This document shows positions 7,093 through 56,650 of a stretch of 64,000 nucleotides of DNA, piece by piece. The notes beneath the pieces are model-generated. The model ran no database searches. It was not told the DNA's origin and saw nothing but the letters and a program-made list of their open reading frames with translations. This DNA is from Carcharhinus amblyrhynchos. Its lineage: Eukaryota. Made by a program: the position numbers and the translations under genes. The stretch is from assembly GCA_965287045.1 (NCBI GenBank), contig OZ336882.1, positions 74,028,001-74,092,000 on the forward strand, given 5' to 3'. Every line of letters begins with the position of its first letter. The first letter of the stretch is position 1.

Positions 7093-7988
7093 TCATTGTT
7101 TCGTTTTGCTAATTAATTTAATAATTGATGTAGCAGGATATTTCACTGCTTCCTTTAACTGCTCTCTGAATTTTGACTGAGTTGCTACATAAATAAATGT
7201 GTTTGTGCAGCAACTTAAATTACGCAGCATATATGCAATGTTTTCAAATATATAAAATGAACGATCATCTAAGCTATTTGGAACATTAAAGAAATATAAC
7301 ATGTACACCAACCACAGAAATATAAAGCTGCCGGATATGGTAAATAGTAAAACTATAGATTTCCTTCTATTCTCCATCTCTGGATCGTTGCAATGATCTG
7401 TCTTTTTCTGACCCCTCAATCCCTTGCGGACTCGACTGGCCACTAAAATATGTCTGACTGTCAGAGCGTTGAGCAACAGAATTAACCCGAATGGTATCAA
7501 AGGGGTTAAAATCTTTTCAAACTTTCTAAATCCAATCCATCTAGGGTCAGTGAAATAGCTTCGCTTATTGGAACAGCGCCATGGTATATTGTCGACAATC
7601 CTTCTAGGTTGAAATCTAAAATAGATGGGGACATTTTTTAAGCAGAAGAAAATACTGGTTGTTCCTAGAACTATGGACGCAGTTTTCTTGGTGCAATATT
7701 TTGATATTAGCCTGTGGCAACAAATGGCAACAAATCTATCAAAAGTGAAAGCGACGGTAAACCAGACAGAACAGTCTGTGGCTGCACGGAGCAGGACATA
7801 GCGAACACTACATACAGGTGTAATTTCGAGGAAATTCAGTGGGAAATAATAATCGTTGATTCGGTTGAGAACGACCTCAGTAATAATGACCAGTAGATCC
7901 GCTATGGCCATTGCCATCAGGTAGTACGTGGTTGAACTGGAAAGGCCGCATTTTCCGTTGGACAGAATGACGATTGCCACTGAGTTAA
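7093..7988 (-). CDS. GPR139-like class A GPCR, gene 1, exon 2 (spliced product 320 aa)
   Basis: 7TM pattern: LMAMAIADLLV (TM2), CSVWFTVAFTFDRFVAIC (TM3, DRF), ENRRKSIVLLF (TM6), CCTNTFIYVATQSKFREQL (TM7/H8). Acceptor tttttgcag|TTAAC at 7988, phase 1; stop at 7093. Confidence 0.93.
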
Positions 7989-8569
7989 CTGCAAAAAAAT
8001 AGGAGGAACATATATCATAAGCCACCAAGAAGCACCTTCCCTCTCTGCACATAGCGTGCATTTTTTTTTGCAGCAGTAACGCATGCATGGGGATTCGGAC
8101 GTTTCCAGATTCCCTTGCAAACTCAAAACACTTCCGCAAACGGAGAACATGATTCGTCTCGGGCCATTCCCTGGATGATGGAGCAGAGCTTTGGTGTTTC
8201 AGTGACTTGCATTCCGAAAAATAATAATGTGAATATTCAAGCATAATCAAAGCACAAGATTAATTTCTACATAGAAGGTTACTAAATTAAGAGACGTTGT
8301 GTTATTTTTGGTGAGACACCCTTTGACTCTTATTTGTGTTCCTATCTTCAGCTGAAATATAAGTTTTTTTTTAGCAGATGTATTATTACGGAAACCACAC
8401 CAAAACTGTGGAGGTGTGGGTGAACTAAAAATAACATGTCTCTGCTATGTGGACACGAGAAGGATAAACATTTACGCAATAGAAGAATTTGAATTTTTCG
8501 AGGGGGGTTGAGATTTTGAATGTGGATACCATATTTGTAACACCGATGAGGCAGTGCAAACCTCAGCTT

Positions 8570-9130
8570 CATCAAAACTAGGTGAAACGATTTATGAGTG
8601 GTGTAAAGGTGCAATTGCTACTACATAGAATCAAAGAGTACTTACAGTAGAGGGGACCTTTCAGCACAGTATATAGGAACTGGCTCTCTGAAAGAACATT
8701 CAACCTATTAACACAAGCATGACCTATCCACGCAACATTACACATTATTGATTTTAGTTTGCATGCCGATTTCATTTCAATGCCTTGAAAGGATATTCCT
8801 CCATTTTTTTTGTGGAAATTCAATCCAGGTTCCATCAACAGTCTAGGTGAAAATAAACTCACATTCTCTTTCAAATGGTGTGTCTATTATGTTGTATCTC
8901 TTCTCTAGTTCTTGATTCTCTCTTGATTGGGAGCAGTTTCTCATTATTTAGTCTATTTGTGGTCCTCAAGATCTTGAATAACCACATCAAGTGGCGCCTC
9001 AGCCATATTTTCTCCACAGAAGATAGACTCATACTCTCCAATCCATCCACATAGCTACAGTTCGTTTTTGCCTGAAATCGGTCTTCTGAATTTCCTCTAT
9101 ACACTTTCCAAAGTCTTCACATCCTTCTCA
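8570..9130 (-). mobile_element. Old degraded CR1 3' region in the gene 1 intron
   Basis: SLSSVEKIWLRRHL..LFKILR..NR.N.EKLLP resembles the CR1 ORF2 C-terminus; atagaatc-type tail near 8625. Confidence 0.6.
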
Positions 9131-10630: not shown

Positions 10631-10697
10631 CAGGAACACCAACGAAGGCAAGAATCAGATAGAATATTTTCCTGACCCATTGAATTGGTCGATGCAT
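10631..10697 (-). CDS. GPR139-like gene 1, exon 1 (MHRPIQWVRKIFYLILAFVGVP)
   Basis: ATG at 10697, 67 nt, donor CCTG|gtaagt; phase 1 joins exon 2 in frame (67+896=963 nt). Confidence 0.88.
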
Positions 10698-11059
10698 TTT
10701 CTGCGTGGATTGACTCTCTTCCTTTGTTTCGCAAGTTATTCCTCTGAATTAAAATCTGATGTCATGTGTCCCTGTTCACTAACCTTTATGCGTCCCCGAT
10801 ATCTCCACGGAGACACTGATGTTGCAAAAATGCTCAAAAATATGTTGTTCTTATAATAGAACAAATACCTTATGACAACGGGATAAATTCCCTGTGGATT
10901 GAACACACTAGATGCTGAGACTAAATTGAATCAACAACACTTGTTTCATTTACTTAGCAAGCGTCATTATATGCAATGCTTACTCATAATTGCAGGCAAT
11001 ATTAAATAGCTAACAAAACTGATATAATTATTCTGCAACAATCATGATTCCTATGCCTT

Positions 11060-15994: not shown

Positions 15995-16022
15995 TACAAT
16001 TATTGTTTTTTTGGACGCTCAC

Positions 16023-17645: not shown

Positions 17646-18263
17646 GGAAGTTAAATAGGACAACGTCTGGCTCGTCGGAATGGAATGTTTCACGGTTGTA
17701 TGTTATATTTTCCAAGGCTTACTGATAATGAAGTTAATATCTGGAAAATAAAATCGGAACTTACATTGACGAGTCAAGTTCCTGTTCTCTCCATTGTTAG
17801 ACACTAATTGGGAAAGGGGGAGTTCTTCAGTTGTGTCTGGGAATGATAGTGAGCAAAATCTGATGGGAGCATCAATAATATCGCATTTATATCAAGATTT
17901 AAGCATGGGCTCTAAAGACACAACACTTTAACATGCGCTTCCATTTTTTTTATTCTAAAAGTTTTGTGAATTAATTAATCATGGTGCATTATTCCTGTAT
18001 TTGAAGTGTCGGCTGCAAACACTCTCATACCATCTATCCCATATATGTACGTCAAGGATGGCTATTCCTTTGAACCTGTGGATGCTGATGTTGACTTTAA
18101 TTTGATCTGTTCAATCTTGGAGAGCAGCAAAAATCATGCACGTGATATTTACTTCAAGAAATGGTTTGAAAACAAAATATTTTCGTCCCTACGTGAATAT
18201 CGCCATTTGATAAAAAAAATCACGGATGTACTAGTGTTCTAACTACGGAGAGAAAGTTTGGTT

Positions 18264-19171
18264 TTAATTTTTCATATTTCTCCAAAATGACAAAACATAT
18301 ATCCAAGGAAATTTGAGGATGTTAAATAATTCTTTCCTGAACTTCGCTTGTGTCGCTACATAAATACATGTGTTTGCACATGACTTCAACTGTGTGAGCA
18401 TGTATCCGGTTTCAGTGGCAATATATGCAGCAGATGTATAACCAGGTCTGATATGAACAACCAGGCTGTTAGTCCAATGAGTCACCATCGATGTCAGACT
18501 CAACAATATAAAGTTGGCCGACACAGCAAACAACAAAACAATGGATTTCCTTCGGCTCTCCATTTCTTGATCACGCTGATTCTCAATGCTGGGAGTCCGG
18601 AGTCTCCTGCGAGCAATATTCGTCACTACAATTCGCCTCACTGTTACGCAATTGAACAGCAATATCAAAGCAAATGGAATCAATGAGAATAAAACACTTT
18701 GCAACTTGAAGTATGTTCTACCTGCAGGCGATGTGAAAAAGGCCACACTTGGGCGGAAACCCCATTGCATACCGTTCACGATTTGTGTATGTTCATGTGA
18801 AAACCAAAACGGGATGTTCTCTAAACACATTGACACAGAAATAATGATTATGACATTGGATGCGGTTCTCACGGTGCAATATTTGGTTTTCAGTTTCTGA
18901 GAACATATGGCTACACACCGGTCAAATGTGAAGCCAACTGTAAACCACACCGACAACCCCACATTGGTGCAAGTCAAGTACGTCATTAGCTTGCAAACCA
19001 CAGTGTAGGACAGAAATGAATATGGGAAGCGTTTTCTGAGAATTTGAAATGCGATTCTTTGGACGACTGTGACCAGTAGATCTGCGGCTCCCATGGCAAC
19101 CATATAGATGGACATACATTTGGAAATGCCACAGTTTCCTCGGCAGAGTGTTACTATTATCAATAAGTTCA
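18264..19171 (-). CDS. GPR139-like class A GPCR, gene 2, exon 2 (spliced product 325 aa)
   Basis: RGNCGISKC (ICL1), MVAMGAADLLV, LSVWFTVGFTFDRCVAIC, ESRRKSIVLLF, AYIATETG, NTCIYVATQAKFRKEL. Acceptor ttacag|TGAAC at 19171. Confidence 0.93.
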
Positions 19172-19809
19172 CTGTAAGAGGCAGAAAAGATCATTAAGAG
19201 TCATGCTCAGCAACATCTCTATATGTATTGCGGCACAGTGTACAAGATGTGTTCTTACTTAAATTTGGGATCATGATTTCCTTTTACAATATTAGAAAAG
19301 CATTGGTGACATTATTTCCCAATCATTCAGTTTGAGCACTGCACATCCTTCATGCTTATTTCTTTCGAAAGCAACAAATGCAGTTCGAATTCAGGATGAT
19401 GAATCGAAAAAAAAAACACGGCACACCAACACATGGAAACACATACGCTCAACTCTCAAAGAAAGGCGGGCGGATAGGGCATTGACGTGGATGATCACGT
19501 GGAGTCACTCGTCAGTATTTAGTCATTTTCTCCCCAAACTTGATTCCGAAAGTGGACACCATTAAATTGTCGCGCCAGATGTCAAAGGAGCATTAATGGT
19601 CCTAAAATTTCGGTCGTGCCCACGATGATTCACGCAGGGTCCCGAGCTCAAAATTTAACTTGTTTGCAACTGAAGAAAGGGGAGCTTAGGAAACTGCAGC
19701 TTAGATTTATCTCTCGACTTAATCGAATGTACCATACTAAGGTTCTTCAGGGAAGGGTTATTTTCTTTTCAAAATTAGACATAAAATCACCTAAGGAGAT
19801 TTTGGAAAG

Positions 19810-20460
19810 GTAGTTCAAGTTTCGGTGAAAGACGAGACGTCTTCAGCTTTGAAGGAGTTTCTTTGAGAAGAAAATTTGGAGAAGCAGTGCAGTTTGCAAA
19901 GAACGATGACAATTTTGTAGTGGAGGCACTGTTTTGGCGGAAGATGGCGGAGGACAGCGGGCAGTAACGTACAATGTGAACAGATTGTTTTGAAAAATGT
20001 CATGGATTATAGATATTTGGATGTCTTCAAGTATATACGAGTGAAGGTGGGTGGCCGGACAGGTTTGACTTAGCATAGTCCAGAGATAGCACATATTTGA
20101 ATGAGTGTTTCAGCAGCAGAACCAAGCAATGTCGGCGACAATGGCGGACTTAGTGCAGGTGTAAGTATGTAGTTAGAAGATCATCTTGTGGTCAAATATT
20201 AGACTGAATTTCAACACATTTCGGTTGCATTTCTTAACATTACTTGGCAGAGGTAAGAGGCAATAGTTCGATAACCAAGAATGAAGCAGGTGCCAGATAG
20301 AATGGCTTCCTCCTTCCCGATATTGAAAGGGATTAAATATCAGATCATCCAAGAGAATATATCAAATAAACGGACTGATGATTTATTGACAGTGGGGGAA
20401 TCGAGTGAGGGGGCTGTGTGGCAGAACTCGCTTTCATCGGTGGACAGGTGAAATGAGTTA
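19810..20460 (-). mobile_element. Old L2/CR1-group LINE fragment (similar relics at about 21790-22320, 23950-24500, 53100-53500, 54620-55030)
   Basis: Purine-rich plus strand with antisense RT/3' fragments typical of L2; too degraded to give a continuous frame. Confidence 0.45.
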
Positions 20461-20689
20461 TGTTTTTGTTTGATGTTATGTTAATGTAAATAGGATAGAG
20501 TTAATGAAAAAAAACATTGGCTTGGTTTTTATCATTGGCGTAGAAATGGGACGATAAGCGATTGCAATTTGATTTTCTGATTTGATTAAATAAATAACAA
20601 TCATATAATTGACCTGGCGCAGAAGGAAGCAATTTGGCCTTTCGTGTCTGTATAGTTCTCCCAATCAGTAAAACCTAGTCCGACTCCGG

Positions 20690-21170
20690 ATTGTTTTAAC
20701 TAAAAATCTGCCCAATCTTTCTGATCAGACACTGGTCTGAAGCCCATTAAAATTAATAAAATTGTTCCCCCTGCGCCATATTCTCAGACAGCGTAATGAA
20801 CATTTGCTGCATGAAAACAACGTTTCTCTTCGTATTTGTTTTCCCCAGATACTCTTTTAAATCTGTGAAATCTTGTTCTCGATATTTTAACGATTGAGAA
20901 AGTTTCTCCCTTTCTACTCTGTCACAACCTCTTATAGTTTTGAATGTCTCTGTCAATTTTTCAATGAGTTGCCTTTTCTTTCAGGTTAGCAGTCGAAACG
21001 TCTCCAAATTATCTTCAGAGCTGAAGCTAATCAGCCCAGGAAGCTTTTCTGAATCTTTTCGACACTGTCTCTACTGTCTTTATATCCTCCCTAATGTGTT
21101 GCCATACTAATGGGATGTGAAATTGTTACTTAAACACGTCGTACATATCTCCTTTACTCTGCATTGTCCT
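20690..21170 (-). mobile_element. Old CR1 3' fragment
   Basis: ETFKTIRGCDRVEREKL resembles the CR1 ORF2 C-terminus. Confidence 0.6.
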
Positions 21171-21192
21171 ATTATTAAAGCTAAATATGTTG

Positions 21193-21233
<41 letters not shown>
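21193..21233. repeat. (ATT)n microsatellite
   Basis: Perfect trinucleotide run. Confidence 0.95.
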
Positions 21234-23207
21234 CCGTTCTCTCAACCAGTCCTGCCACTTGCACGGGCGTGAAGGTCTACATTATGAATATCGGTCAGAA
21301 AAAAAAAATCACAACGTTAACCCTGTTAACCTCTCGACAAATCGTCCCCACGCATGAAAGAATACATTAAAAATCATTATCATTCCTGTCACTCAATCGA
21401 TCTCTGATCGCAGTCCAACTCTCATTTTAATTCCTTGAGCTCGAATCCTGCTCAGAATTCCAAGTGTGCAGCATTGTATCAATTGGCGTTTGGAGGTTTA
21501 TATGCACCATATTAAGAACAATACCGTCACCAATCCCTTTGTGCTCTGTTCCCAACATGAGAACGAAACGCACCAATGCCAGGAACCATGTGACTGTCGT
21601 CAGCTACAACGCAATGCAGCGCGTAAGAAACGCAACACCTGTTAACTCTGCCAACGGCTACAGCGAGGCAGAGTGGTGTGAGCACACGTTGTTACGATCA
21701 TGCAGAATATTAATTGTTACTTTGAATAAAGCCATGTTGGTACTCTATCCGATGTTGAAACTCTTTGGATCGATTTGAGGATGTACTTCTGACTAATGTG
21801 GACACACGTTGGAGAGGAAACAATTGTTCAAGAACATTCTTTATAAGAAATGAAGTTCGGAGATGGAAAATATTTTAAATGGATCATGGGTTCAAGTGTT
21901 GAGTTCGGTGGAGTTAAGAGGCAAAACGCATCTTCAAATGAGTGATCTAGGTCACCTGAAATAAAGCACAACCATTGATAGCATGAACTGATACGGGGAG
22001 GAGACGAACAAGGAGTTTCGTGGTCAGTAATTTAGTTCGATTGGGATCTAGGAAGCCAGGAGGTGGGTCTCATGGGCAAGGTGACTTTTGAGCATGGAAT
22101 GATGAGGACATTGGAGGAACTAGACAAATCTTTGAGTTACGGAAATGGCAATAGCATTTACTTTAGGTGTCTTTGAATTGCGAATTTCATTTAATCCGGC
22201 ATGGCTGATGGCGTCCAACTAAAATTGATGCAACTAAAGAATGAGGCAAGGAATTGATCAGAGATGGATTCCATTGCGATTTGGACGAGTGGCATCATAT
22301 GATGCGAGAACCGAAGCAGAAAAATGCATTAATAAATGGACAGTTCAATGATTGTTAATCTTCAGCAACAACACATCTATATTTTATTACATGTAACAGT
22401 TTGTTATGCTGAGCGTTAAAAGAAGTCATCTCAACACAAAGCTTGTGCGCACAATCTACCCACGTTTCTGAGTTACCGGTGCAGGTTCATTGTGTAATTA
22501 ATGTGATTGTACATTTCGTCCCTGCCATTTACTTGAAACCAGAATCAGGGGAACAAATATCATTCCGTATAATTCCTAAACCATAATTCTAAATAAACCA
22601 AATCAAATAAAACAGTCAATTGAGATAAAGAGGCCAAAATGCATTACAAAAATCCATATTCGAACAATGTTAATGGGCGCAAGGAAGCTTCTAAGGAGTT
22701 GAACGGGAGCTGGTGGAAGCGTAATGTTTCTTTCCAGTTGAGAGTTTACGATATTTTTTCTAAAAATGGATTTCAAAATCCCCAATGATTATACGCATCA
22801 GCAGTAAAACAAAAACAACTATACAGGGATCAAGGATGCAAAATGAATGATAGAAAGTCATCAGAACATTCACGAGCACAATAAAGGGTGGACAATGCAT
22901 ACTAGCGTACGCATTTCGTGAAATCATGAATAAAACACTTCCTTCAGCTGGGCATTGAACCAACTAGACCGTTGAAAAATCCGTTTCGCCAGCTGTATTA
23001 TATTGACTGAAGCTGAGTCGGAGTCTAACACTCTACCAACCAGGAGAGACTCTGCCCGGTTACCTGACCTTCTGAATTTTCTTCTTATTTTCACGACTTC
23101 TCTGCGGCATAAATGATTCTGCAAGCAAGAGTGTCTCATTCTGCCATATAACCATCAACACTAAAATATTCAACATTGATTTAAAAAAAATATATATCAC
23201 TAATTAC

Positions 23208-42150: not shown

Positions 42151-44538
42151 TATTTTTGTGTCAGTCAGGAAGAAGCAATTGCTGCCGTTCACCCATGTGC
42201 TCATAGAATGTGTGCATACCTATACTCCATCATCCCTTAAAGTGATATTCCCCCGTTTACCATCGCACTTTGTGCCTCATATCATCGCAGTTCACTTTAT
42301 TAAATTTCAAGACCCCATTCATAATGTCAACGTCACTCTGCATCTTAATAAAACGAATTGATCACATTATGATGGTGCATCTCCAAGAGGTCTTGCACAA
42401 CTAAATTGTGAATTGTCCACTTATCCTTATACAATACTCAAACTAGAATGACCTGCTCAGTTGGTTCCTCAACGTACTGGCTTTGAAAACAATCCCACAT
42501 GCACTCCAGGAACTCCTCTTCTAAGAATTTTGAGTAAATTATTTTTCCCAGTATATATGCTGATTAAAATCACCTATAATAGATGATCATTTATTGCATG
42601 TACCTCTAATTTTATGCCTAATGTAATTCCCAGTATCACGACTGTAGTCTATATACAATCCTTACCGTTATTCCATGTCCCTTGGTGTTTCTTCGCTATG
42701 GCTAGAGACATACCACGTCGTGGGAGCTAGTATTCTGCCTGATTACGGAATTAAGTTTCTCTTTAACCAGCAATGCAACCCCACTGTCTTTTTCTTTTTC
42801 GAAAGGTAACTAAATAAAAGTTACATTACAAAACTGAACACTTCTGGATGCACATTTCCTCCCTCTGGTCACCGTGCAGCTATTTCTCCATAATCCCGAC
42901 TGTATCATCCTCATTGACATCTATTTGCAGGATAAATCACTCCGACCATCTTTCGGCTTTTTTTTCGTTACTGATCGCGTTCCAATTTTATTTGGCTGAG
43001 ACCCTGTTTGATCCTAGTTTCTCTGCTTTGCTTGTTTCCCTTTCTGTCGTCGGTCTTTGCCCGTGATGTCCTATCCTCTGACTCCTTGTCTAAGCTCCTA
43101 TCTTCTTGCCATTTTATTTTCAAACTTCTCGAATCGCTGTAGCAAATATGTCCCCAGGATATCAGTCGTAATCCTGACCAGATGCCACCTGCACAGTTTA
43201 TACTGGTAAAACTTTTCCCCCAAGAACAGTCCCAATCCCTCAGAAACTGAAAACTCTTTTCGACCTTCACTTTCACCTTGGAATCATTTCCCCCATGATA
43301 TTCTTTTTTCTTCACATTTAGATCTTAACATAAATAATTCCTGTCAAGGGTTACACTGAGAGGGATGGAGAATCAATGAACATAGACGGGTGACAGAGTT
43401 GTTGGGTGTCCCGAACTTTGTTTACATCCCCACATGGGGGCAGAACACGGGACAATCATTATATTATGCAAACCCGCTCCCCACAATCAATCACAGACAG
43501 CACCCGACGTGGTGTTACATCCCGTGGACATCAAACACCGCACAATATTATGTCACAACTCGCTCCTCATGACAGCATTGACTTCCAGAGAACATCCACC
43601 CACATCTTATACAATGCAAGCCATAAATCATGAAGATAATGTAAAAACAAGTTTCTTTTGTTTTAACTGATGAAAACTCCCCTGCTTTTTTTTTAATTCA
43701 TACCGATAATAAAAGGCACCGAAAAAAGATACAGGTGCATAAATCACTTAGTTAGTCTTCTGTAAATGTTTAAAGCATGTCTGCATTTGATGAATTCACA
43801 CTTAAATGAACAATTCGATCCGCAAAAATACATTTAAGTTCACACGATTAATGACTGCTTAACTGCGTTAGTGCGTTTTTTTTTCAATTGATAAGAACAC
43901 GAGCGATCAATTGAACTTCAAGCCTCCCGGTTATCAGCATGATGTGAAGACGGCTACATTTATGAAAAAGTATGTCTTCAGTGAAGCAGAAATGTAACTG
44001 GCCAATGAGCAACCAGACGGAGAAATAACGTAATGGCGTGATTGCAGCACAGCACATGCCACTACAGCACTGAATGAACCAGAAGAGGACTATGGTAGGC
44101 AAAAATGTTCCAAACAAATGTAGTACAGTGATGAAAGTCCAATATCAACTGTTTTACTGGCAACTGTCTGGCAGGATTCCATTCTTTATACAAAAGGGGG
44201 TTGAGACCGACAGTTGCTCGTCGTTACTCAACAGTTCTATCTGTCGGCATGAGACAGCCACGATATCAGACCAAAGATTGGCCCCATTTGAAAAAAAAAC
44301 AAAATTTATACAAGTGAAAACGAAGGTGGGATCCATTTTACTAATATTTGATTACTCACCTTTTTGCAATCCACCAAAATTTAGATGGTTATTCTTCTGC
44401 ACTTTTTCTTCACAACTTCATGAATAACGTCATCATTAGTAAAATATTATACTGATGCATTTTAATCGTCAGTATTAATGAAAGTGGCAATAGCACCAGA
44501 TTATCACAGTGAAGATAATCCGTGAAAGGTTATCTTCA

Positions 44539-44790
44539 GGTTTCAGTCCTACCAATTCATTTGAAAGTAAACTCACAAGCTTTCCGGTTAGCCCCTTCGT
44601 CAGGTGAATGGAGAGTTCTGGCCTCAGACAGAGCATATAAAGCTTTATATGTCTGTGCTTTATATGCTCTGACGAAGGGGCTAACGGGAAAGCTTGTGAG
44701 TTTACTATTAAATAAATCGGTTGAACTAAAACCTGGTGTTATCAGACTTTTTACTGTGTTTACCCCAGTCCAACGCCGGCATATCCACAT
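44539..44790. mobile_element. Penelope-like pseudo-LTR fragment arranged as a palindrome, with a 14 bp TSD
   Basis: TSD aaaggttatcttca at 44525-44538 and 44791-44804; inverted arms around 44620-44670; ends in accccagtccaacgccggcatatccacat, like the element at 53741. Confidence 0.88.
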
Positions 44791-46449
44791 AAAGGTTATC
44801 TTCACAGATAACCTTTTTGATACAATGAAAGAATATTCACCAACCCACATGTGACTGACATTCTTAAGTGTATTTTCAGAATGTTTTCCACATTTGGTAA
44901 GATTTCTCGCAAACTATCATGTAAACGATTTTACAAATCAATTAATGATCTCAAATAACCCATCTCGCCATTGCTAATGAAATTATTGAGTTATTTCACT
45001 TCAGCTCCCCCAAAGAAATTATGTCTATGTCCTCCTGGTTGAATTTAGTTAATTTCTTACTTCAGTGGGTCTTAGGATTCTCATATAAACATTGGTCAAA
45101 AAGCTTGGAAATAATTTAACATTTTTCTTCAGTGTTTCATGTCCACTCTGCAATTGCACCATATGTAGTTAGAAATAACACTGACAGTCACAAAAATGAT
45201 CTTCGTTTTCGCTTTCCACATCGTTTCATTGTCTCTGGGTTCATCAAAAATAACTTTTTGCATCTTGGGCCCTTCTCATCATCAGAGGGACGAGCATTTT
45301 TTAATGATAAATTTTAGTGTCTTCGCGTCCGATGAGAGGAGATGCCTGCATGGATTATTGTACCCCTGGTGAAGGGTGGAAATAAGAACAAGGAAAGGTA
45401 TGTAATAGGGTGGAGGATAGCAAAGATTCCATGTACAAAATAACAATATCACAATAATGTTGCAAGTCCAGAGACAGAGGAAATAGGTTCAATAAATGAA
45501 GGAATGATTGGGGAATGAATTGTAGGTTCCTGTAATCTGCCGCACGAAAACAAAAAAAAAATTACAAGAGAAAATAGCATAGTGTTAGTGAGTCCAATGT
45601 AATTTATCCTGTCATGTTCAGGTCACGGTTTACAATGTTACATGTTTTTTTGTGAGGTTATTAATGCAATTGACTCTTTCTCATTACTAAATCAATATTT
45701 TGGTTTTGAGGTATGTTCTTCCTGCAAACTGCCCTGAATTCAAGCTATTAATTCACTTATTTTACAGAAATTCCAATTGAGACTAGTTTCGGGAAATAGA
45801 CACATTCTGAGTTCAGACACACACGGAAAGGTGATCTTGATGTTGGTGTCAGGGGTTCTTCCTCTTAGGGATTCTCATATTCAGGTATGTATGAATTAAA
45901 ACAAAAATATTCCTGATTCTACATATTTCTGATTATTGATGTTCACACACACCGACTGTTTCCAACACAACAAATACTTTTCACCTTTAAAGTCGACTTC
46001 CAAATCCATCTGCTTATTTTTATTATACTAACCCATCTGCCTGTGGAAGAATTTGACCCTGTTCTACCGCCCCACATTCAGGGATAGAGACAACAGTAAT
46101 AACAGGAGTGTTTTCGTTGGCAAAAAAATATAGACTGCAAGGTTTCCTTCAGAAATCAACAAATTAAAGAAAGGAAGTGCCAATCCCTTACTGAATCAAC
46201 CATTAACTAGAACTGAAGGGACTGCGTGATTTCTCTAGTCTAACCCCATATATATATATATGTATATATATACATATGTATATAAGGGTTAGGCTAGAGG
46301 AATGACTAGATAACTTCTCTGAGTGCTCTGATTGCTTTTCTGTCCATTAATGAGACATATTGACCCATAAATTTCCAAGAAGAAAAAAAAAACTGCAGAA
46401 ATTGAATTTTCTGATGATCTGTAAAATTTGCATCAAGTCATTGTTGTAT

Positions 46450-47435
46450 TGGTTTGCTCCACCATTCAATAAGATCATGGCTGATCCTTTTGTGGACTCA
46501 GCTCCATTTACCCTCCGCTCACCATAACCCTCAATTCCTTTACTGTTCAAACGTGTATCTACCCTTGCCTTAAAAATAACATTCAATGAGGCAGCCTCAG
46601 CTGTTTCACTGGGCAACGAATTCGTCAGCTTCACAACCCTTTATGTGAGGAAGTCCCCCCTCAACTCAGTCCTAAATTTGCTTCCCCTTATTTTGGAGGC
46701 TATGCCCCCTAGTTCTAGTTTCATCCGCAAGTGGGGACAATTTCCCTGCTTTTATCTCATATTTTCCCATCATAATCTTATATGTTTCTATAATATCTCC
46801 CGTCATTCTTCTGAATTCCAATGAGTATAGCCCCAGTCTACTCAGTGTCTCCTCATAAGCCAGCTCTCTCAGCTCCAGAATCAGCCTAGTAAATCTCCTC
46901 TTCACTCCCTCCACTGCTAATATATCCTTTCTCAAGAAAGGGGACCAAAACTGTACAAAGTACTAGACGTGTGGCCCCACCAGCACCCTGTACATTTGCA
47001 ATATAATCTCCCTGTTTTTTAAACTTCATCCCTCTAGCAATGAAGGACAAAGTTCTATTTGCTTTCTTAATTATATATTGCACCTGCAAACCAACTCCTT
47101 GTGATTCTTGTACAAGAAAACACTAGTCTTTTTTGCACAGCAGCATGCTGCAATGTTTTGCCTTTTAAATAACAATCCATTTTGCCGTTAATCCAACCAA
47201 AATGAATGGCCTCAGATTTGCCAACATTGTACACCTTCTGCCAGACCCGCGCGTACTGACTTAGACTATCTATATCCTTTTTCAGCGTCCTCTGCACACT
47301 TTACTTTTCAACCCTTCTTAGTCTCATCTGCGTATATTGACACATGGCACTTCGTCCCCTACCCCAAATCATCTATGTAAATCGCAACAAATTGCGGTCC
47401 CAACACTGATCTTTGAGGCACCCTACTAGTCACTA
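46450..47435 (-). mobile_element. CR1 RT-to-3' fragment
   Basis: RKDILAVEGVKRRFTRLI, RTRGHSL and the conserved 3' UTR. Confidence 0.88.
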
Positions 47436-47529
47436 ATACATGTGATGATAATAAAACAAATGAATTCAAATCAACAGTTCAGTCTGCTGGCTTCAGAGTC
47501 AACACTGAATTAAAGAAAAGAAACGGAAA

Positions 47530-48080
47530 TGGCACTTTATTAATAAGGCAAGTAAGCTGGAGTTTTTTCAACGGCTGAAAGGAACCCAGTGGAGGATTAT
47601 CATCTATTCCAGGCACGACATTTTAGGAAAGATGACATAGTGTTAGATATGTTGCGAAAGAGATTCACTAGAATATTACCAGAGATGTGAGATTACAGTT
47701 ATTTGAAGCAAGCAGGAAGCTGGACTGTTTTCCTTCAAGCAGCGAAAGTTAAAAGGATGTTTAATGGAACTGCTCAAAATGCTGAAGGCGCGATAAAGAA
47801 AATGAGAATAATGTGTCTCCATTGCCAGAAAATAAAGAGCATAATTGAAATATGAAGTTTTTTTTCATGCAGTGGATTTTGTTAATCTGGAATTCACTGC
47901 ATGAGAGGATGGAGGAAGCAGATTCAACAATAAACTTCAAAATGAAATTTAAAAAATCGTTAAGTTTGGCGTGCAATGTCATGGAGAAATTATGGAAGAG
48001 AACCAATAATTGTATAGTTCTTTCAGACAACCGGCACTGACAAAATGGACAGATTAGCCTCCTTCCGCGCTGCAATGTTA
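47530..48080 (+). mobile_element. Old CR1 3' fragment
   Basis: FRKDD..LD...KRFTRILP and FFMQWILLIWNSL remnants. Confidence 0.6.
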
Positions 48081-49909
48081 TATTATTACATGATATACCG
48101 AGGGTTGGAATCCTCCTGTTAACGACACAATACCCGCATTAATCCCACTGTTTGAGGTGCAAAAACGTTGCTGAATCGTTTATTCATTAGTGAATTCTTC
48201 CCACTTGGGGTTCTGTCCTGTTGTGATCTTACCAGTAAACCGATTTCGGAGTTTGGGTTATCAGCAATCAGGTCAGGCAGAGTTAAAATCTGGGAAACTG
48301 CGAAATTGGGGTAAACACGTTTCCGGGTAGAATGTGTCCTCGTAAAGAGTTCGGGAGCTTGACTATCAGGATCAAAACATCTGTGACAATCCATTTTGTT
48401 CACTGACTCCTCAGCTCTCTCACTGGCACAGCTTCCCCCAGTGCCATGATAGAGAGCAAATACTCTGCAGAGAATGATTCCATTCATTCTGCACAAAAGG
48501 AGACGATTCGAAACAAAAAAAATCGTTTTTTTCTTGTATTTCAGAAGAAGCATCCAGATGCTCCGAAAAAGGTTGACTTTCTCATTTAGAGTCTGATTTT
48601 TCCGATTTCTGTCAATGCTAGGACGTGTTTTTTTTTACATTTACGTTCCTGTTCACACTAACCACAACAATCCCTAATTATGTTTGCTAATCAAAAATAT
48701 AGATATTTATCTTAGAATGCATTAGAAGTACCTGCTTATGTACTTCTAAGAAAAAGAAGGCTATGACAACATGTAGGGAGGTGGGTCTGAGACCTGGGGG
48801 AGATCAGCTATAATATGATTGAATGGCGGGGCATAATCGAAGGGCAGAATTTGCCCACTTCTGCTCCTGATTCCTATGTTACTACGTTCCTATGCATTTT
48901 GCCACAGTGGACAATGTGGATGTGTGTTAAACCATTGCACGTTTGTCGCGTTATTTCTTCAAGACATGTATTTGAAGCAACTCCGATAAATGTGCGATTG
49001 ATTGGCAGTTTTGAGGAAGCATTTGATGAACCAATATGACGAAGCAGCGAAGCAGCAAATGTTGCCCAGCGGGAGCAGAATTAATTATTGCCGGGAGCAA
49101 GTGGGAGCTCACTCTGCCAAGGGAAAGATTGACTGAGGAATGTCAACACAGCTTCTTCAGAGACGAGAGGAGAAAGGCAAATGATGTGTTTTTTTTTAAT
49201 CCTGACCTTCAAATAACATTTCCCGTCACTCATTTCATTAAATTAAACCTTGTTTAATAGCTCTACTGATCTTTGTCCATGACACTGAATACACGGCCCT
49301 TAGTTCTCAACCCATAAAATGGATTATGTTTACGCTGTTTCGTCTCCTTAAACCTATCAACATCTCGAAAGCTATATTAGGTCAGCTAATCTCTCTTCTA
49401 AATCGAACAAACCAAACTCCCCAAATATTTTATTCGTGAAAACCTTCCAGTGAGCATACTCCTTCCCCGTTCTAATGTCCTTTGCAGAAGATTGTTGACC
49501 AGCGTTAACCTCAAGTCTACATGCTAAGATCAATGCACTGGTGTTACAGACGTAGCATGATCTCCCTTCTAACTTATAATATTTCTCGATTTATCAAACC
49601 AACAAACAAAGTCATTTTGGAATTAAGTGATGAATGCTGTGTATGAAGAGATCATTGTCACTCGGCACATCTGGGCTTTACAATAATCTCGAGTTTGCTG
49701 TGTCCTCATATTCCACATTTCCAATTTTGGTGTTCTTATATTGAGCTTTGTCTATGTTACTGAACAATTTTCTGAGCTGATTTCTGTTTCATTGAAAAAC
49801 TTCCTCGTTGTCATGTTCAACTAATAAAGAGAGAAAATTTCAATGTGCATCTCTGTTTTAAATTCTCTATCTGGCTCACTTTGAATATTTTGGAAATATT
49901 TTCTTACTT

Positions 49910-52265
49910 ATCTAGTGAGAGTGATGGAATGGAAGAGTGTGTGGAGGGCGGGAGAATGGCAGGTTAAAAGACTGTGGCGTGAAATATTGTTTCTTTGCAA
50001 GAACATGTGCAGTGAGTGTATGGGAGTTAAGTAAGTGTGGGAGGGTGAAATAGTTTGGAGTAGTGAGAGATTTGGGGGCTGCTTGAGTGTGCGTAAGGGG
50101 TTGCGGGGGAATGGGGGTCGTTGGAAGCGTGTGTCGGAGTGAGAATGTGGGCAGGAGTGAGAGTTGGAAAACATATTTTGCGTAGCTCAATCCCGTATCA
50201 GTTTTTTTTTCTGAACCTCACCCAAAGTGCCATATACTCCCATCCACATTCAGAGAAGGCGAAGATGTCGGTATGAGTACATTTAGTCTTTGAGTGAACT
50301 GAATGCTTACACGCTCACTTTACCGCAATCCAATACCGATACTTATGTTCTAAGTGTTTTTTTTTCTGTTGCTATGCAAGTTGTCTATTTCCAAGCATTT
50401 TTTTTAATTATTCGAGAGAGCTATGGCAAAATTTATTCATCAGATATTTGGGCTTTAGCCTATTGATTTAAAAAAATTGAAATGTGGCCCCTGACAAAAA
50501 CATATTTCAATGGCCTCGCATAGAACCTGCACAGAAAACATCTTATCGACTGTCAGGTTTCGAGCCAAGTCTAGGTTAACATCCGGAGTCTTGAAGAACG
50601 TTTGGGAAGTAGAAAAAGAGTAGAGTCGTCCACAGTGGCAAAAGCAATTGGATTTATTTTGTCAGTGTTAGTAACGTTTAATTGGGAATTTAATTCAGTG
50701 GATACGGTGGTTGTACTTCTGCAGTCGGATCAGCAGGAGTGTGAAGTGTTTTTTTTCCAAACTCCTGAAGAGTTCGGAGGCACTGGATTATCAGTGCTGC
50801 CTCACAGTTCCAGGGACTTGTGTTCGATTGCAGCTAGGGTCACCACCTGCGTAGATTCTGCATCTTTTGCCTGTGACTCCTCGTGTTCCTGCTTCCTCGT
50901 ACAGTCGAAGATGTGCGGGTTAGGTGGATTGTCCATTCTAATCTGCCAGGGCGACGAGCTAGATAAAATGTCTGGGGTTATGGGGATAGGGGCTGAGTGG
51001 GATTGTGGTTGGTGCAGAATCGATGGGCTTAATGACCTCCTTCTACACTGAAGGATCCTATGAATCTTTGAAATGGATGCGCAGTAACGCAGCATGCGAA
51101 ATTACTGGCATGGTAGGAAGGCACACTTTGGAAGTGAACAAATTTGCTTCTGGTTTGTACTATGCTTCTGTTGTAAGGTATGTTTCAGTCACATCCATTT
51201 TGATACCGTGAAGTTTCTTCAAGTGAATGCAGATACTGCAAAGTCTTATCTATTATAATGGGATACCATCGATAAGATGCAAGTTGGTAACTTCCTGCTG
51301 GTGTGAGTTCGAAAATAATGTTAATTTCACGATTCGAACATAATGTAGGTTTGGCAGAATGAACAACGGGAATGGAGGGATTAAAAGCAAATACTAAGCG
51401 GACAAAGCTAAATGACGATGAGTTTTCGAGTGGTGCGTCACCGTGATCAGAAGAATGAGGGATGTGGAGAAAAGAGCTAAGATAAAGGGGTGCGAGGCCG
51501 AATGGGGAGAAAAAATTGTATGCAACAGGGATGCAATGGAAGAAAGTGAAAGTACCCAGTAAGAGCAAGAGTGCAAAAGGGCTCTTGTGAGAGCAGGGTA
51601 GAGTGCTGACTTACGTGAAGAGGGAGCGGAGCAGGAGGGGAGGATGACAAAAAGGTGGGAGAGCAGTGGAATTGAGAAAAAAAAGCATATGCAGAGATTA
51701 AACTAAAGGGGCAGTGAAACAATAGGAAAGAGAAAGAGTGATCAAGACAAATAGAGAGAGTAAGGAACAAAGGGAGTCAGCGAGAAAAGAGAAGAGAGGA
51801 AGCGATTAAATAACGATCAGAAAATTACATGATGAGGTATCAGAGCAGAATTAGAGCATTTGGCTCTTGGGGTCCGCTTTGCCATTCCACCTTGGCTGAC
51901 AAGTTTCTCCACCACATTCTCCCGCCTTTTTCATAAAACGATTATTCCCATTTCCAATAAATAACACATCTATCTCTGCGTTAAGCCCCTCCAGTGACCT
52001 GGCCCCCACAACCTGCTGTGGCATTGACATTCGTGGAATCACCAACATCTGGCCGAAGAAATTCCTCCTCATCACAGTTATAAAGGATATCCCTTTACTC
52101 TGAGAGACTGCCCTCGTATCCTAATCTCTCCTACCAAGGGAAAATTATTCCCAACATTCACGCTTTCCAGACAGTTCAATATTCCATGTATTTCAGTGAG
52201 ATCCCCCTCACTCTTCTAAACTCCACTCAATGCAAGACCCTGATTCCTCAAACACATCAAACGTC
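49910..52265. repeat. Direct segmental duplication, copy A (partner about 61125-64000); short homologous blocks also at 45341-45429 vs 59474-59561 and 49111-49250 vs 59562-59700
   Basis: Collinear matches such as gaaatattgt..ctttgcaaga, aacctgcacagaaaacatcttatcgactgt, aaactcctgaagagttcggaggcactgg, and the shared antisense CR1. Confidence 0.92.
50770..51055 (+). mobile_element. Degraded tRNA-derived SINE (V-SINE/HE1-like); paralogous copy at 61960-62805
   Basis: agcactgctgcctcacag-like head, gatgtgcgggttaggtggattg core and a CR1-like 3' end. Confidence 0.65.
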
Positions 52266-52770
52266 ATCCTTTTCATTCCTGGGATAATTCCTGGCTCACA
52301 AGTCTAGATCCTGTCCAAGGTCTTCTTTAGATAAGGAACCCAAGATTTCTCGCAACTTTCCAAATGTCTTACCAAGGCCTTAAAAAGACTCAGCAATGCA
52401 TCTTTGTTTGTTTTTTGTATTCAAGTCCTTTCTAAATGAAAATGAACCTTGCATTCTTTCCTAAATAGCAAGTCAGCCTGCACGTTAGCCATACGATAAA
52501 CCTGAACGGACTCGGTCGTCCAACTTCTGAACTCCTAGTTTCGAAAATTGTGTACACCTCACTTTTTTTTTCCTGCAAAAGTAAATAATCTCACACTTTC
52601 TCACATTATCTTCCATCTGCCTCTAATTTTCCAACTCTCATAATCTGTCCAAATCATTTTCTAGCCTCCCCAACTGTTCAGTATTGCTTCTCGTTTCATC
52701 ATTATTTGTATCATCTGCGACAATAGCGGCAATCCGCTCAATTCCTTCCTCTCGATCATTGACGTATACA
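51850..52770 (-). mobile_element. Old CR1 3' fragment (paralogue at 63590-64000)
   Basis: MRRNFFGQ..V...SMPQQVV.A remnants. Confidence 0.7.
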
Positions 52771-53740
52771 TGAATTACAAAGGCAGGAATATCCGAACAA
52801 TGATGAAGAACCGTGGAGAAAGAAATTTTGAAGAAATAAACAGAAAGAAATTATTTTAAAGTTAGATTGAAAAAAAATGTACAGCAGAGAGCCTGGGAAC
52901 AGAAATACAAGAGGAAATAATCTTACAGAGCAAGTGGAAGACTGGGAGACTTATAAAGTAGCACATAGACAGCGAAAGAATGCAAGGGAAGCAGAGGCAC
53001 ACAGGCAGACAGAGATCATGAGATGCAACGTGCACATTTTGGGAATAGGCACAAGAGAAAGCCGGGGAGAGAGAAAGAAAGAGAGTTCAGACGGGGACAT
53101 TTGAAAACACCTTGTATTTATTTAACTCTTTTCTTGTAGGAAAATGTTCCAATGATCTTCACAGACAGGACAAATGGTAAAACATTTACACCAATCCAAG
53201 CAGATATTAGAAATGAGAGAAGGAATGACGCCGCATCGTGCATGAAAGAGAAATGAAGGACTAAGATTTTTACTGAAGGAATTCCAGAGGATTTTGCTTT
53301 GACAGTTGGAGATCAGTAGTGTTAAAGCGATTAAAAATGGCAAAATGGTTTATGATAGGAATTGGAAAAGAGTACAGGTATACAGAGAGTTTTGCTGGTT
53401 AAATGAGATTACAGAGATAAGACAAAAACTTTAGAGACTGGTGAAGAATAGAGAGATGGATGGACATCGGGACGGAGGAAGATAGAGAGATGGAGACGTT
53501 TGTAGTATTAGGTTAGCATACAAAGTTCCAGAAGGCTGCATTTTCTAATGGAGCTGGAAAAAAAAGTGTATTTCGTATTCAACGGAAGCAATAGTTTTTA
53601 AAAAAGTAACTAGAGAAATACAACATGCCACAATATTAGGGTGTCTTATTGGGACTGGAAAGGATTTCAAGCATTGATGGAATTTTGCTGCTGGGAAATG
53701 TGCCAGATTTAGGGAACGTTCTCTGAGCTAAAGAAGTGTA

Positions 53741-54600
53741 ATGATGGGGAGACGCCGGTGTTGGACTGGGGTAGACGCAGTAAGAAGTCTGACAACACCA
53801 GGTTTAAGTCAAACCGATTAATTTGATAGTAAACTCGCAAGCTTCTGGGGTTTGCCCCTTCGTCAGGTGAATGGAAAGTTCTGGCCTCAGGCATGAGCAT
53901 ATAATAGCACAGACAGTTTACAGATTATTGATTAGAATGCGAGTCTTTACACCTAACCTGCTATTCAAGTCTTAAAGTGGCTAACAGTGTGAGTGGAAGG
54001 GGCATTAAGCCCAGGTTAAAGAGATGTGTATTGTCTCCAGACAGTAAAGTAAGTGATGTTTGGCAAACCCAGGCAAGTCATGGAGGTTACAGATAGTGCG
54101 ACATGAACCCAAGATCCCTATTGAGACCGTCCTCATGTGCGCGGAACTTGGTTATTAGTCTCTGCTCAGCGACTCTGTGCTGTCATGTGTCGTGAAGGCC
54201 GCCTGGGAGAATGCTTATCCGAAGGTCAGAGGCCGAATGCCCGTGACCACTGAAGTGTTCCCCAACAGGAAGGGAACAATCTTGCCTGGTGATTCTCGAG
54301 TGATGTTCATTCATCCGTTGTCTTAGCGTCTGCATGGTCTCCCCAATGTACCATGCTTCGGGACATCCTTTCCTGCAGCATATTAATAATAACATTGTTG
54401 GCCTCTTTAAGACTTGAATAGCAGGTTAGTTGTAAAGGCTCGCATTCTAATCAGTAATCTGTAAACTGTGTGTGCTGTTATATGCTCTGTCTGAGGCCAG
54501 AACTCTCCATTCACCTGACGAAGGGGTAAACCCCGAAAGCTTGCGAATTTACTATCAAATAAATCGGTTGGACTTAAACCTGGTGTTGTCAGACTTCTTA
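53741..54600 (-). mobile_element. 5'-truncated Penelope-like element (GIY-YIG endonuclease C-terminus and pseudo-LTR) with an inverted pseudo-LTR copy and a 13 bp TSD
   Basis: ICCRKGCPEAWYIGETMQTLRQRMNEH...VGEHFSGHGH (54183..54395); about 200 bp inverted repeat 53779-53978 vs 54405-54602; TSD ctaaagaagtgta (53728) and ctaaagaagcgta (54601). Confidence 0.93.
54509..54549 (+). ncRNA. Minimal type I hammerhead ribozyme motif in the Penelope pseudo-LTR
   Basis: attcac-CTGACGA-a-GGGG taaa CCCC-GAAA-gctt-gcgaat: core CUGANGA and GAAA, perfect 4 bp stem II, stem I attcac/gcgaat, palindromic AAGCTT stem III. Confidence 0.8.
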
Positions 54601-55758
54601 CTAAAGAAGCGTACACAGTTTGTGCAAGGTCTAGAGACTGGAAGATCTTAAAGTGATCGTGAGCTCTACAGGGTCGAGATAATTAGTGAGTTCAGGAGGA
54701 ATCAGCAACTTTGAAACATGCAGGATTTTTAACTCAAGGTTTTGTTGGACAGAGAAATTGATAGGTCAGATTGCAAAAAGGATGATTTGCGTATGGGACT
54801 TTCTGTGATTGAGCCATAGATTTTGCAGAGGGTGTGTTATGGAGTGTGTAAAGTGAACATTTGACAGAATTGCTTTGGATTAATGATGTCTGGAAGAAGC
54901 AATTAAAAAGTCGACACATTGCGCAGATTCTAACAAAAGAAACAAGTCTGGTGAAATTTTGGATTGGAATAAATGTGAAGGAGTAGACAGGTGGTCAGTC
55001 ATGGGGGTCTGGTTTGACTTCTGCGGACTTGATTGGGAACAGGTTCCAGAGGGAGGCACGAAGGTGACCCACAACCACGAACCAAGATGAACTGGTTCGC
55101 AACCTCTCACCCATCGCCATCTCCAACCCGCACGCTCCTATCTTCTATCCCAGACACAGGCTCCGCATGTGATCACGCGGATACTATGTCACAGTCTATC
55201 CTGGGGAGGAGAGGTGGAAAAGAGAGATAGATGGTGAAATATAGGGATCACCGATTCCATATTTTTCTGGAATATTGCTGATAAGCGATGTGTAAAACTC
55301 AAATTCCACCAGCCAACCAATCAGTATTCTACTCTCATAAAGTAAACATTGTTTTTTTTCACCCGTCTTCCGATATTATTGCAAAAAATGCATATGACTG
55401 AAAGGCGGAAAGTTTTAACATTATGTTCCTTTCAGCAATAATCAAGGCCTGCACGACTGCAAAAGTAAATTCTTTCTATATGGAGGCAGGATGGGCGGAT
55501 AGATAAGTGGGTGGATAGACGGATGGCTGGACAGGTGGGCGGCAAAACAGATTGATGACATAGTAGATAGATGAATGGAGGAATGGAAGGAAGCAAAGAT
55601 GGAAAAAAAAGGAATGATGGTGGGATGGGTGTTTGTACAAACGTATCAATTGACTTTCCTGGCACTAACATCTTTTTGATGTTTTTAATCCTCAAGGATT
55701 TTTCCTTTGTGCCGCGGTGGTCAACCCTTGCATCAAAGCACTGAATCTACGAGCAGAT

Positions 55759-56650
55759 TCAAAAGTACTTGTTTATTAATTTAATAATTGATATAACAGG
55801 ATATTTCACAACATTCTTCACCTGCTCTCTGAATTTGTACTGAGTCGCCACATAAATAAATGTGTTCGTGCAACAGTTTAAATCCTTAGCATATACGCAA
55901 TTTCTTCAAAGTTATAAAAAGATTCAGCATCTAAACTATCAGCGACGTCAAAAAAGTATAAAACATACAACAGCCACAGAAGAAGGAAGCTGCCAGGAAT
56001 GGTGAACAGCAAAATTAATGACTTCGTTCTGTTCTCTATCTCTGGATCACGGTCATTCTCTGCCTTGCTCTAACCTCTCAGTCCTTCACGTGCTCGACTA
56101 CTTAGGAAAAGGTGTCTGACGGTCAGGGCGTTGAGAAACAGAATTACACCGAATGGTATCAATGGGGTTAAAATCTTTTCAAATTCTCTAAATTTAATCC
56201 GTCGGGGATCAGTGAAGTAGCTTCGCTTATTTAAACAGTGCCATGGTACATTATCGATGATTTCTCTCGGTTCAAATCTGAAGTAGATGGGAATATTTTT
56301 TAAACAAAGCAAAATGCCAATTGTAGATAGTATCAGCACCGCAGTTTTCCTGGTGCAATATTTAGTTTTCAGCCAAGGACAACAAATAGCAACGTATCGA
56401 TGAAAACTGAAAGCCACAGTAAACCAAACAGAGCAGTCTAGGGCTGCACGCAGAAGTGCATAGCGAACACTGCACACAGGGGTAATCCACAGGAAATTAA
56501 TTCTGAAATAATAGTAATTGATGCGCCTGAGAATGACCTCGGTAATAATGACCAAGAGATCCGCAATTGCCATTGCCACCAGGTATTGAGTGGTGCAGGT
56601 GGAGAGGCCACAATTGCCACGTAACAGAGTGACGATTGCAAGTCCGTTAA
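55759..56650 (-). pseudogene. GPR139-like gene 4 pseudogene, exon 2 (paralogue of gene 1)
   Basis: Acceptor ttacag|TTAAC at 56650; DRF changed to HRY; TAG at 56070-56072 where gene 1 has Gln (CAG); 1 nt deletion near 55882 (ATG CTA AGG A-T TTA); ancestral stop at 55759; no exon 1 found in the window. Confidence 0.9.

Follow-up and report, generated by a model that had tools for sequence, protein, structure and literature searches.

What does it mean that a shark keeps four related G protein-coupled receptor (GPCR) genes, one of them broken, within 50 kb of DNA, and what might such receptors be for? The genes lie in a stretch of 64,000 nucleotides of Carcharhinus amblyrhynchos (assembly GCA_965287045.1, contig OZ336882.1, positions 74,028,001 to 74,092,000), which as a whole is called the window below. 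A sequence-only reading had seen there an expanded and diversifying cluster of GPR139-like receptors. We show that the genes belong to a family which forms one clade, has expanded by tandem and segmental duplication, has lost members as pseudogenes, and combines a fixed G-protein face with varied pockets and loops and a common promoter module. This family is real, large and apparently undescribed beyond automatic annotation, and it probably constitutes a repertoire of chemosensory receptors in sensory neurons.

The genes of the window and the size of their family

All four genes match the Pfam family 7tm_1 (PF00001) with 54-77 bits, for a cut-off of 30.5, which places them among the class A (rhodopsin-like) GPCRs. 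Their short first exons were located with the N-termini of homologues and then verified base by base. In window coordinates (TM stands for transmembrane helix, ECL and ICL for extracellular and intracellular loop), the exons are:

Gene 1, exon 1: 10631..10697, minus strand, 22 codons, phase-1 GT donor
Gene 1, exon 2: 7093..7988, minus strand, from the TM1 half to the stop, intact
Gene 2, exon 1: 23208..23277, minus strand, 23 codons, phase-1 donor
Gene 2, exon 2: 18264..19171, minus strand, intact, without the ECL2 cysteine
Gene 3, exon 1: 36967..37036, plus strand, 23 codons, phase-1 donor
Gene 3, exon 2: 37450..38357, plus strand, intact
Gene 4, exon 2: 55759..56650, minus strand, pseudogene with a TAG stop at 56072-56070 and a frameshift in TM7 near 55885

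Genes 1, 2 and 3 have GT-AG phase-1 introns of 2,642, 4,036 and 413 bases and are spliced into open proteins of 320, 325 and 325 codons, respectively. Splicing and the 7tm_1 matches bear out the four paralogues at the places given by the sequence-only reading, and all the sequence motifs that it quoted are found in the genes. Its pseudogene stands as well: besides the stop and the frameshift, gene 4 has His in place of the Asp of its DRY-like motif, and no exon 1 was found upstream in 7.35 kb of the window and 2.5 kb beyond. The same holds for its two subfamilies, since genes 1 and 4 have an identity of 73% across the 192 codons preceding the stop of gene 4, and genes 2 and 3 fall into one subclade of the tree described below, with a support of 100/100, though they are only 48% identical (46% for genes 1 and 3). 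Gene 3 is 79% identical to a protein of the cloudy catshark.

The size of the family was estimated over the whole genome (2.92 Gb, 1,520 contigs). A 29-base motif from TM3 has 1,073 exact matches and a TM6 motif has 914; both reversed controls gave 0, which excludes a chance origin of the matches, and the genome-wide count suggested by the sequence-only reading thus gave far more than a few copies. Protein searches started from 3,285 first-look candidates for gene 3 and 3,446 for gene 1. With gene 3 they gave at least 128 matches (128 of 128 scored), near full length, with E of 2e-71 or below and four of them with stops; with gene 1 they gave at least 131 (131 of 131 scored), including a young subfamily of about 43 copies, 83-89% identical, to which exon 2 of gene 1 belongs. 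The matches are spread over at least 34 contigs. About 1,600 loci carry at least one of the two motifs, and 36 carry both among the 100 and 95 in the shared listed range, from which capture-recapture estimates 2,500-2,800 loci (resampling range 2,270-3,780). A second estimate, based on the 47 of 106 protein matches that carry the TM3 motif, is about 2,400; both estimates rest on the first-listed contigs, assumed to be typical. The same genome has only three odorant receptor (OR) matches (all 114 candidates scored), with no locus of the family among them, and 20 matches to a first-exon motif of class C receptors, 16 of them clustered on one contig.

Two regions illustrate the arrangement of the copies. 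A young array of 3.7 Mb (G000:C48 with G000:C13:75.0-75.5 Mb) consists of two alternating subfamilies, one with 83-89% and the other with 73-74% identity to gene 1, and C48 may sit inside the C13 cluster. At G000:C9:98.9-99.6 Mb, the motif and protein match lists reveal a regular two-gene repeat with a period of about 85 kb, in which one gene has an in-frame TAA in several copies.

Could so many copies have arisen through passive amplification in duplication-prone regions, most of them being functionless and part of the count being assembly duplication? Many matches indeed lie on small unplaced contigs, and large segmental duplications occur inside and beside the window, where the duplicated flanks noticed by the sequence-only reading proved by sequence comparison to be true segmental duplications:

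40775..56160, no strand assigned: inverted segmental duplicate including the 3' end of gene 4, about 90-93% identity, about 11 kb
17847..25483, no strand assigned: gene 2 segment, a 7.6 kb copy with its paralogue about 180 kb downstream, 70-75% identity

Within the first of these, 42154-56160 and 40775-42150 are inverted copies of the 10 kb preceding the window and of window positions 1-1412. On the side of function, 88 of the first 100 TM3-motif sites have an AG acceptor and an open exon 2 of at least 284 codons, the other 12 being broken, a proportion in which the motif requirement favours intact copies. Neighbours at 99% identity or more exist for 29 of 145 intact genes, but none of the 145 has a fully identical one; haplotype duplicates may thus raise the count a little, without accounting for it. 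These 145 genes form 94, 72, 27 and 12 groups at 90, 80, 60 and 50% protein identity. Passive amplification is further opposed by ratios of nonsynonymous to synonymous substitution rates (dN/dS) below 1, by a promoter motif that persists although fourfold sites are almost saturated and by species-specific expansions in other sharks, all described below. As a whole explanation it is largely refuted and we consider it very improbable; expansion by birth and death, as the sequence-only reading had it, agrees with the more than 1,000 copies, the duplications and the pseudogenes.

The possibility that the duplicated flanks are mere transposon copies was also considered and rejected: window positions 300-900 have a single local copy at 92%, their other copies being genome-wide repeats at 68-71%. 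The 3' end region of gene 1 has, together with the flank downstream of it, an inverted copy of 90% identity at G000:C13:74001219; this copy lies 34 kb before gene 1 and is cut off by a fragment of a long interspersed nuclear element (LINE). LINE reverse transcriptase fragments are present in the window at 5312-6476, 26458-28989, 46455-47436 and 62130-62730, with RVT_1 matches at 26745-27860 and 5430-5945, and this LINE family occurs in 85 of 199 retrieved loci. The window also contains a C-terminal dimerisation fragment of a hAT transposase (15262-15573, minus strand, PF05699, E 7e-6) and two old copies (76-80%) of a repeat at 49914-52276 and 61129-64000; this repeat also occurs in the DNA preceding the window, and its longest frame has no Pfam match. 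No 26-base satellite was found upstream of the genes in the window.

Ancestry and distribution of the family

GPR139-like is a loose label taken from databases, and these genes are neither GPR139 nor GPR142. The true GPR139 of this shark has its own locus, a lone match on a different contig with 87% identity to the human protein; GPR142 has been recorded in chimaera, white shark and stingray. The best sequence match of the window genes in the PDB is GPR139 (E 4e-6), and their identity across GPR139 and GPR142 is 23-30%. That the family could be GPR139 itself was rejected on three grounds, namely 27-30% identity compared with a criterion of about 70%, a position outside the GPR139 clade and the presence of the true orthologue elsewhere.

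Relatives were searched with shark GPR139 against all protein representatives, and the matches rescored with a profile of the family. This profile gave 195 bits for a coelacanth gene, 122-131 for amphioxus genes, 116 for an anchovy gene and 96 for a lamprey gene, and no more than 78 for GPR139 orthologues. Closest to the family are two unnamed genes that we call LA and LB, both automatically labelled 'probable GPR139' and each with one orthologue in this shark genome. LA (e.g., coelacanth XP_005988539) occurs in sharks, ray-finned fishes, amphibians, turtles and squamates, with no named mammal or bird among its best 120 matches; LB is represented, for example, by anchovy XP_063078741 and in lamprey. 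The phylogenetic tree was built from 53 rows and 284 columns after 26 rows were dropped, including the long-branched Ciona and acorn worm. In this tree the members of the family come together with a support of 100/100, on a long stem, the grouping of the family with LA and LB reaches 97/97, the amphioxus genes stand outside at 94/94, and GPR139 and GPR142 form a clade of their own. The position of LA as sister of the family reaches only 86/62. The best tree separates the family from GPR139 and GPR142, although a forced clade of the three is not rejected (p-AU, approximately unbiased test, 0.079). No one-to-one orthologue of the family in bony vertebrates was found, and this refutation named by the sequence-only reading does not hold.

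The two relatives deserve a remark of their own. The LA locus of this shark is at G000:C22:47735232-47736206, and some LA records are fused to TMEM183A models. Its pocket residues are fixed from sharks to squamates (E2.61, R3.28, D3.29, Y3.33, R6.51, Q6.55 and D7.36), and LA likely has one specific ligand. The LB locus is at G000:C7:106816704-106817636, and a D-R-N-D-Y-like motif in ECL3 is common to LA and LB.

How far does the family extend? Out of 1,500 homologues of gene 3, the best 120 belong to 12 species of sharks and rays, and nearly all these 120 proteins are named 'probable G-protein coupled receptor 139' (RefSeq) or bear another automatic name. Lineage-specific expansion is evident from protein clusters at 90% identity, with 8-13 members each, within sevengill shark, horn shark, sawshark and catsharks. 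A protein from sawfish branches within the subclade formed by genes 2 and 3, and this subfamily must therefore predate the split of sharks and rays. The sequence-only reading had considered a possibly lineage-specific system; the expansion is confirmed, but the family is not confined to one lineage and spans sharks and at least one ray.

Existing records go little further than these names. The sources of ten protein clusters that we looked up are genome annotation only, and the ESM Atlas gives only automatic names and invertebrate neighbours resembling FMRFamide receptors. No paper counting, naming or testing the family was found in the literature searched, outside which lie many subscription papers, so that its absence from print is unproven. 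There is no entry for the family in 8 supplementary files of PMC13188829 or in 12 of the 24 files of PMC8455134, and a supplement of PMC13200729 has only a one-to-one orthologue row for Gpr139. The genome paper on catshark senses reports 2 OR and 6 OR-like genes, with no GPR name in its main text (PMC11979771), the paper on the whale shark describes cartilaginous fishes as comparatively poor in GPCRs (PMC8455134), and the shark nose has been accounted for by V2Rs (PMC10116579); no GPCR passage was found in PMC10620051.

A fixed inner face, a variable pocket and a common promoter module

An AlphaFold2 model of the catshark homologue of gene 3 (102 aligned rows) has a pLDDT (predicted local distance difference test) of 84 and presents seven helices, a helix 8, four residues before TM1 and a beta-hairpin in ECL2. 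In a Foldseek search CCK, orexin, GPR139, opioid and neurotensin receptors come out about equal, with template modelling scores of 0.7-0.8 to peptide receptors; because many peptide receptors rank equally, no ligand class is named. For 114 of the 145 intact genes we located an exon 1 that includes a start codon; its length is 22 or 23 codons in 94 of them.

Conservation was studied on 72 representatives below 80% identity, with generic residue numbers transferred by alignment with GPR139. The class A residues N1.50, D2.50, R3.50, P5.50 and Y7.53 are conserved at 100%, and the elements kept at 75-100% are N1.50, D2.50, F-T-F-D-R, P5.50, D-x-E...R-R-K-S-x-x-L-L-F, N7.49, Y7.53 and T-Q-x-K-F-R. 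The cysteines of TM3 and ECL2 are conserved at 99% and 92%. Gene 2 (18264-19171) and a relative are without the ECL2 cysteine, and the TM3-ECL2 disulfide appears, from their sequences, to have been lost in one branch.

The sequence-only reading had described a conserved intracellular and a variable ligand face, and the numbers agree with it. At 30 positions that we take to line the pocket, the mean entropy of the family is 2.28 bits, compared with 1.10 at 99 positions of the intracellular halves (p 1e-8). This is unlike the single-copy relatives, for which the pocket and intracellular values are 0.69 and 0.93 (LA, 44 representatives) or 0.54 and 0.54 (GPR139, 19 orthologue representatives). 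The Trp/Phe pocket of GPR139 is composed of E108, F109, H187, W241, R244 and N271 (PMC7318219). At these positions the family keeps W in 92%, H in 44% and F in 15% of the representatives, and E, R and N are not among the four commonest residues. Arg 6.51, invariant in GPR139 and LA, is replaced by Tyr, Phe and others, and the family is thus unlikely to have kept the ancestral ligand.

The same residues bear on the idea of a repertoire for reproductive or other internal tissues (testis, sperm, gut endocrine cells), on which sexual or dietary selection would act. Such a role is suggested by GPR142, which senses amino acids in gut and pancreas (PMC7318219), and by catshark v2r genes reported in testis and rectal gland (PMC11979771). 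The Arg 6.51 and Glu 3.32 with which GPR139 binds Trp/Phe are lost in the family, however, and no promoter feature points to testis, gut or similar tissues, so that we regard this explanation as improbable.

Selection was analyzed with our own codon models on exon 2. In the gene 1 subfamily (24 of 38 sequences, after removal of those more than 99% identical), model M0 gives a dN/dS of 0.67, and M2a is preferred to M1a with a likelihood ratio test (LRT) value of 87.7 and 11% of sites at 4.3. By region, dN/dS is 1.46 in the loops, 0.92 in the pocket and 0.31 in the intracellular halves; the excess divergence which the sequence-only reading proposed to look for is thus found in the loops and, as the entropies show, at pocket positions. 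The test is significant in 3 of 4 segments with their own trees, and in 14 null simulations on eight mosaic trees the LRT remained below 87.7 in all 14, with a maximum of 14.3. Of four other subfamilies, one is significant (LRT 22.6) and three, including that of gene 3, are not; their M0 values are 0.29-0.50 and their pocket dN/dS 0.25-0.68. Overall dN/dS is below 1 in all five subfamilies (M0 0.29-0.67), and selection is mostly purifying with bursts at the loops.

Positive selection in the loops of a young array would also fit an arms race, as expected for an immune or host-defence repertoire, which like FPRs or MRGPRX would recognize microbial or parasite peptides on leukocytes or barrier epithelia. 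The fold matches include C3aR, FPR2 and CCR5, though these are no better than other peptide receptors. The promoters are relevant to this question as well. They were compared as the 200 bases before the ATG of 48 genes below 80% protein identity, with 96 distal windows as control. These genes differ at a median of 59% of fourfold sites and their upstream DNA barely aligns, and yet a common order of elements is present: a Forkhead-like TGTTT (24 of 48 promoters vs 13 of 96 distal windows), a CTCCCTGGAG-type site and, about 10-14 bases after it, a TATA box (26/48 vs 14/96). An unseeded motif search gave TTGtCTCCcTGGAG as top motif in its best runs, with a likelihood of 160 vs 60 on distal DNA. 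With a matrix seeded by eye and cross-validated six-fold, 29 of 48 promoters score above the 95th percentile of the distal windows (p 4e-11), and 27 of these 29 sites lie between -133 and -86. Site and TATA box occur together in 70 of 114 genes, a partly in-sample figure, vs 0.0009 per equal window elsewhere. In the window, the module is found before two genes:

Gene 1 promoter module: 10802..10819, minus strand, O/E (EBF)-like site, matrix score 20.2, with a TATA-like box about 12 bases beyond
Gene 3 promoter module: 36851..36885, plus strand, O/E (EBF)-like site at 36851-36868 and TATA box at 36880-36885, matrix score 20.8

The names O/E, Forkhead and homeodomain are given by resemblance only and denote putative sites. 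With at most one mismatch, the O/E consensus YCCCNNGGGR (PMC8213819) is present in 21 of 48 proximal vs 9 of 96 distal windows, and the core of the module equals the Ebf probe of mouse OMP at 9 of 10 bases (PMC5608512). A TAATT-type site stands directly before the O/E-like site in 9/48 vs 4/96; its geometry differs from that of the Greek Island composite probe (one probe was compared), and we therefore refrain from naming it such a composite. Searched across the genome, an exact promoter pattern has 79 matches vs 15 for its control, and about 28 of the 79 lie in clusters of the family; many of the remaining ones resemble a repeat, and the pattern is not used as support. Exon 1 of GPR139 was not found within 60 kb. 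Three V2R-type promoters (L189-L191) have a loose counterpart of the family module about 110 bases before the start codon, where TAATT...GGAG precedes a TATA box, but its matrix score is low (4.8-6.1).

For an immune repertoire these promoters speak both ways. The factor Ebf owes its name to early B cells (PMC8213819), EBF1 drives B-cell genes and the Forkhead-like site is enriched, but octamer, ETS, RUNX, GATA, NF-kB and IRF patterns (consensus sequences) are not enriched in the 48 promoters. One supplementary file on nurse shark spleen (PMC10529500) is without a GPR139 entry, which says little. Altogether we hold an immune function for unlikely, the more so as we know of no immune precedent for a germline repertoire of more than 1,000 GPCRs. 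A somatosensory repertoire in the neurons of cranial or spinal ganglia, with the role of the Mas-related (Mrgpr) receptors of mammals, could likewise use this module, since EBF and homeodomain factors act in sensory ganglia. The peptide-receptor fold with a short N-terminus would suit it, but Mrgpr families count tens of genes and not thousands. Cartilaginous fishes are reported to be without MAS1 and its relatives (PMC8455134), a vacancy in favour of this explanation, to which we nonetheless give slightly less credit than to the immune one.

Function, significance and known systems

Chemosensory receptors in sensory neurons remain, on this evidence, the probable identity of the family. As their site of expression, the olfactory epithelium falls a little short of an even chance, and other surface chemosensory cells seem unlikely. 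In the proposed mechanism, EBF and homeodomain factors would bind the promoter module so that each cell expresses one member or a few, and each receptor would bind a different small peptide or amino-acid-like cue in a pocket of the peptide-receptor type, presumably capped by the disulfide-tied hairpin of ECL2. All members may then signal via a common G protein.

Several observations weigh against a chemosensory role. No N-glycosylation sequon is present in exon 1 of any of the 114 genes, unlike ORs, which carry an N-terminal glycosylation site. Conserved inner and variable outer faces mark any GPCR family with many ligands, immune ones included. Of the 5 subfamilies only 2 show significant positive selection, and of these two that of gene 1 was compared with the recombination null. 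Concerning the promoters, gene 2 has no module scored at the usual place, a perfect O/E consensus is absent from all 48, TAATT by itself shows no enrichment (32/48 vs 52/96), and the homeodomain site lies on the other side of the O/E site, or one base further from it, than in the mouse probe. The three OR loci and the promoters of LA and LB are without the module, and among 20 class C (V2R-type) loci, which served as positive control and whose identity was judged by eye, a single one has a matrix score of at least 9, and this one without the TATA spacing. B cells and other neurons likewise use EBF. Six sequencing runs match gene 3, none of them RNA, a result that is uninformative rather than negative, and contigs from four runs cross the intron of gene 3 unspliced, which shows only that the locus is conserved in those organisms. 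Finally, catshark olfaction is already explained by V2Rs (PMC10116579).

Whatever the tissue, more than 1,000 constrained receptors unrelated to OR, TAAR, V1R and V2R contradict the picture of cartilaginous fishes as poor in GPCRs. If they are expressed in the nose, they would be a further, independently evolved family of vertebrate odorant receptors; a chemosensory function, if true, would overturn the view that sharks have very few receptors of the smell type. It also makes testable an old question, namely how sharks, famed for their smell, manage with so few receptors. If the family is immune or somatosensory, its size as a germline GPCR repertoire is without a counterpart known to us. In addition, two conserved vertebrate GPCR genes, LA and LB, are revealed under the GPR139 label.

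Birth-and-death repertoires of GPCRs are of a known kind; according to the searches made, the origin from this branch in a vertebrate, the size and the promoter module are new within the literature searched. The comparison with known systems begins with GPR139 and GPR142. These share with the family two coding exons with the same phase-1 intron in TM1 before A-N-x-L (the acceptor position is the same in shark GPR139, LA, LB and the family), S-x-W-x-T-V before the DRY position, Trp 6.48 and a non-canonical NPxxY. GPR139 differs in that it has neither the TM3-ECL2 cysteine pair nor the longer ECL2 and ICL3 of the family, which for its part has not kept Glu 3.32, Arg 6.51 and Asn 7.39. LA and LB are closer, with a short exon 1, the intron position, the cysteine pair and the RKS motif at the start of TM6, but they are single-copy and have no promoter module, and the pocket of LA is fixed across vertebrates. 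GPR139 and GPR142 have been grouped with the receptors for MIP, FMRFamide, RGWamide, proctolin and myosuppressin (PMC8514136), and the srw chemoreceptors of nematodes are said to arise from the FMRFamide/myosuppressin receptor branch (PMC2576165). Their birth-and-death expansion from the same peptide-receptor branch offers a precedent for a chemosensory function. It is nevertheless an independent expansion: none of the family members tested, the four window genes included, matches Pfam 7TM_GPCR_Srw, while GPR142 and LB score above its cut-off. Finally, the family resembles OR, TAAR and V1R repertoires in its hundreds to thousands of small clustered genes evolving by birth and death, its very short N-terminus, its variable pocket and its putative O/E-like and homeodomain-like promoter sites, and differs from ORs by the absence of a Pfam 7tm_4 match, by one coding intron and by its peptide-receptor ancestry.

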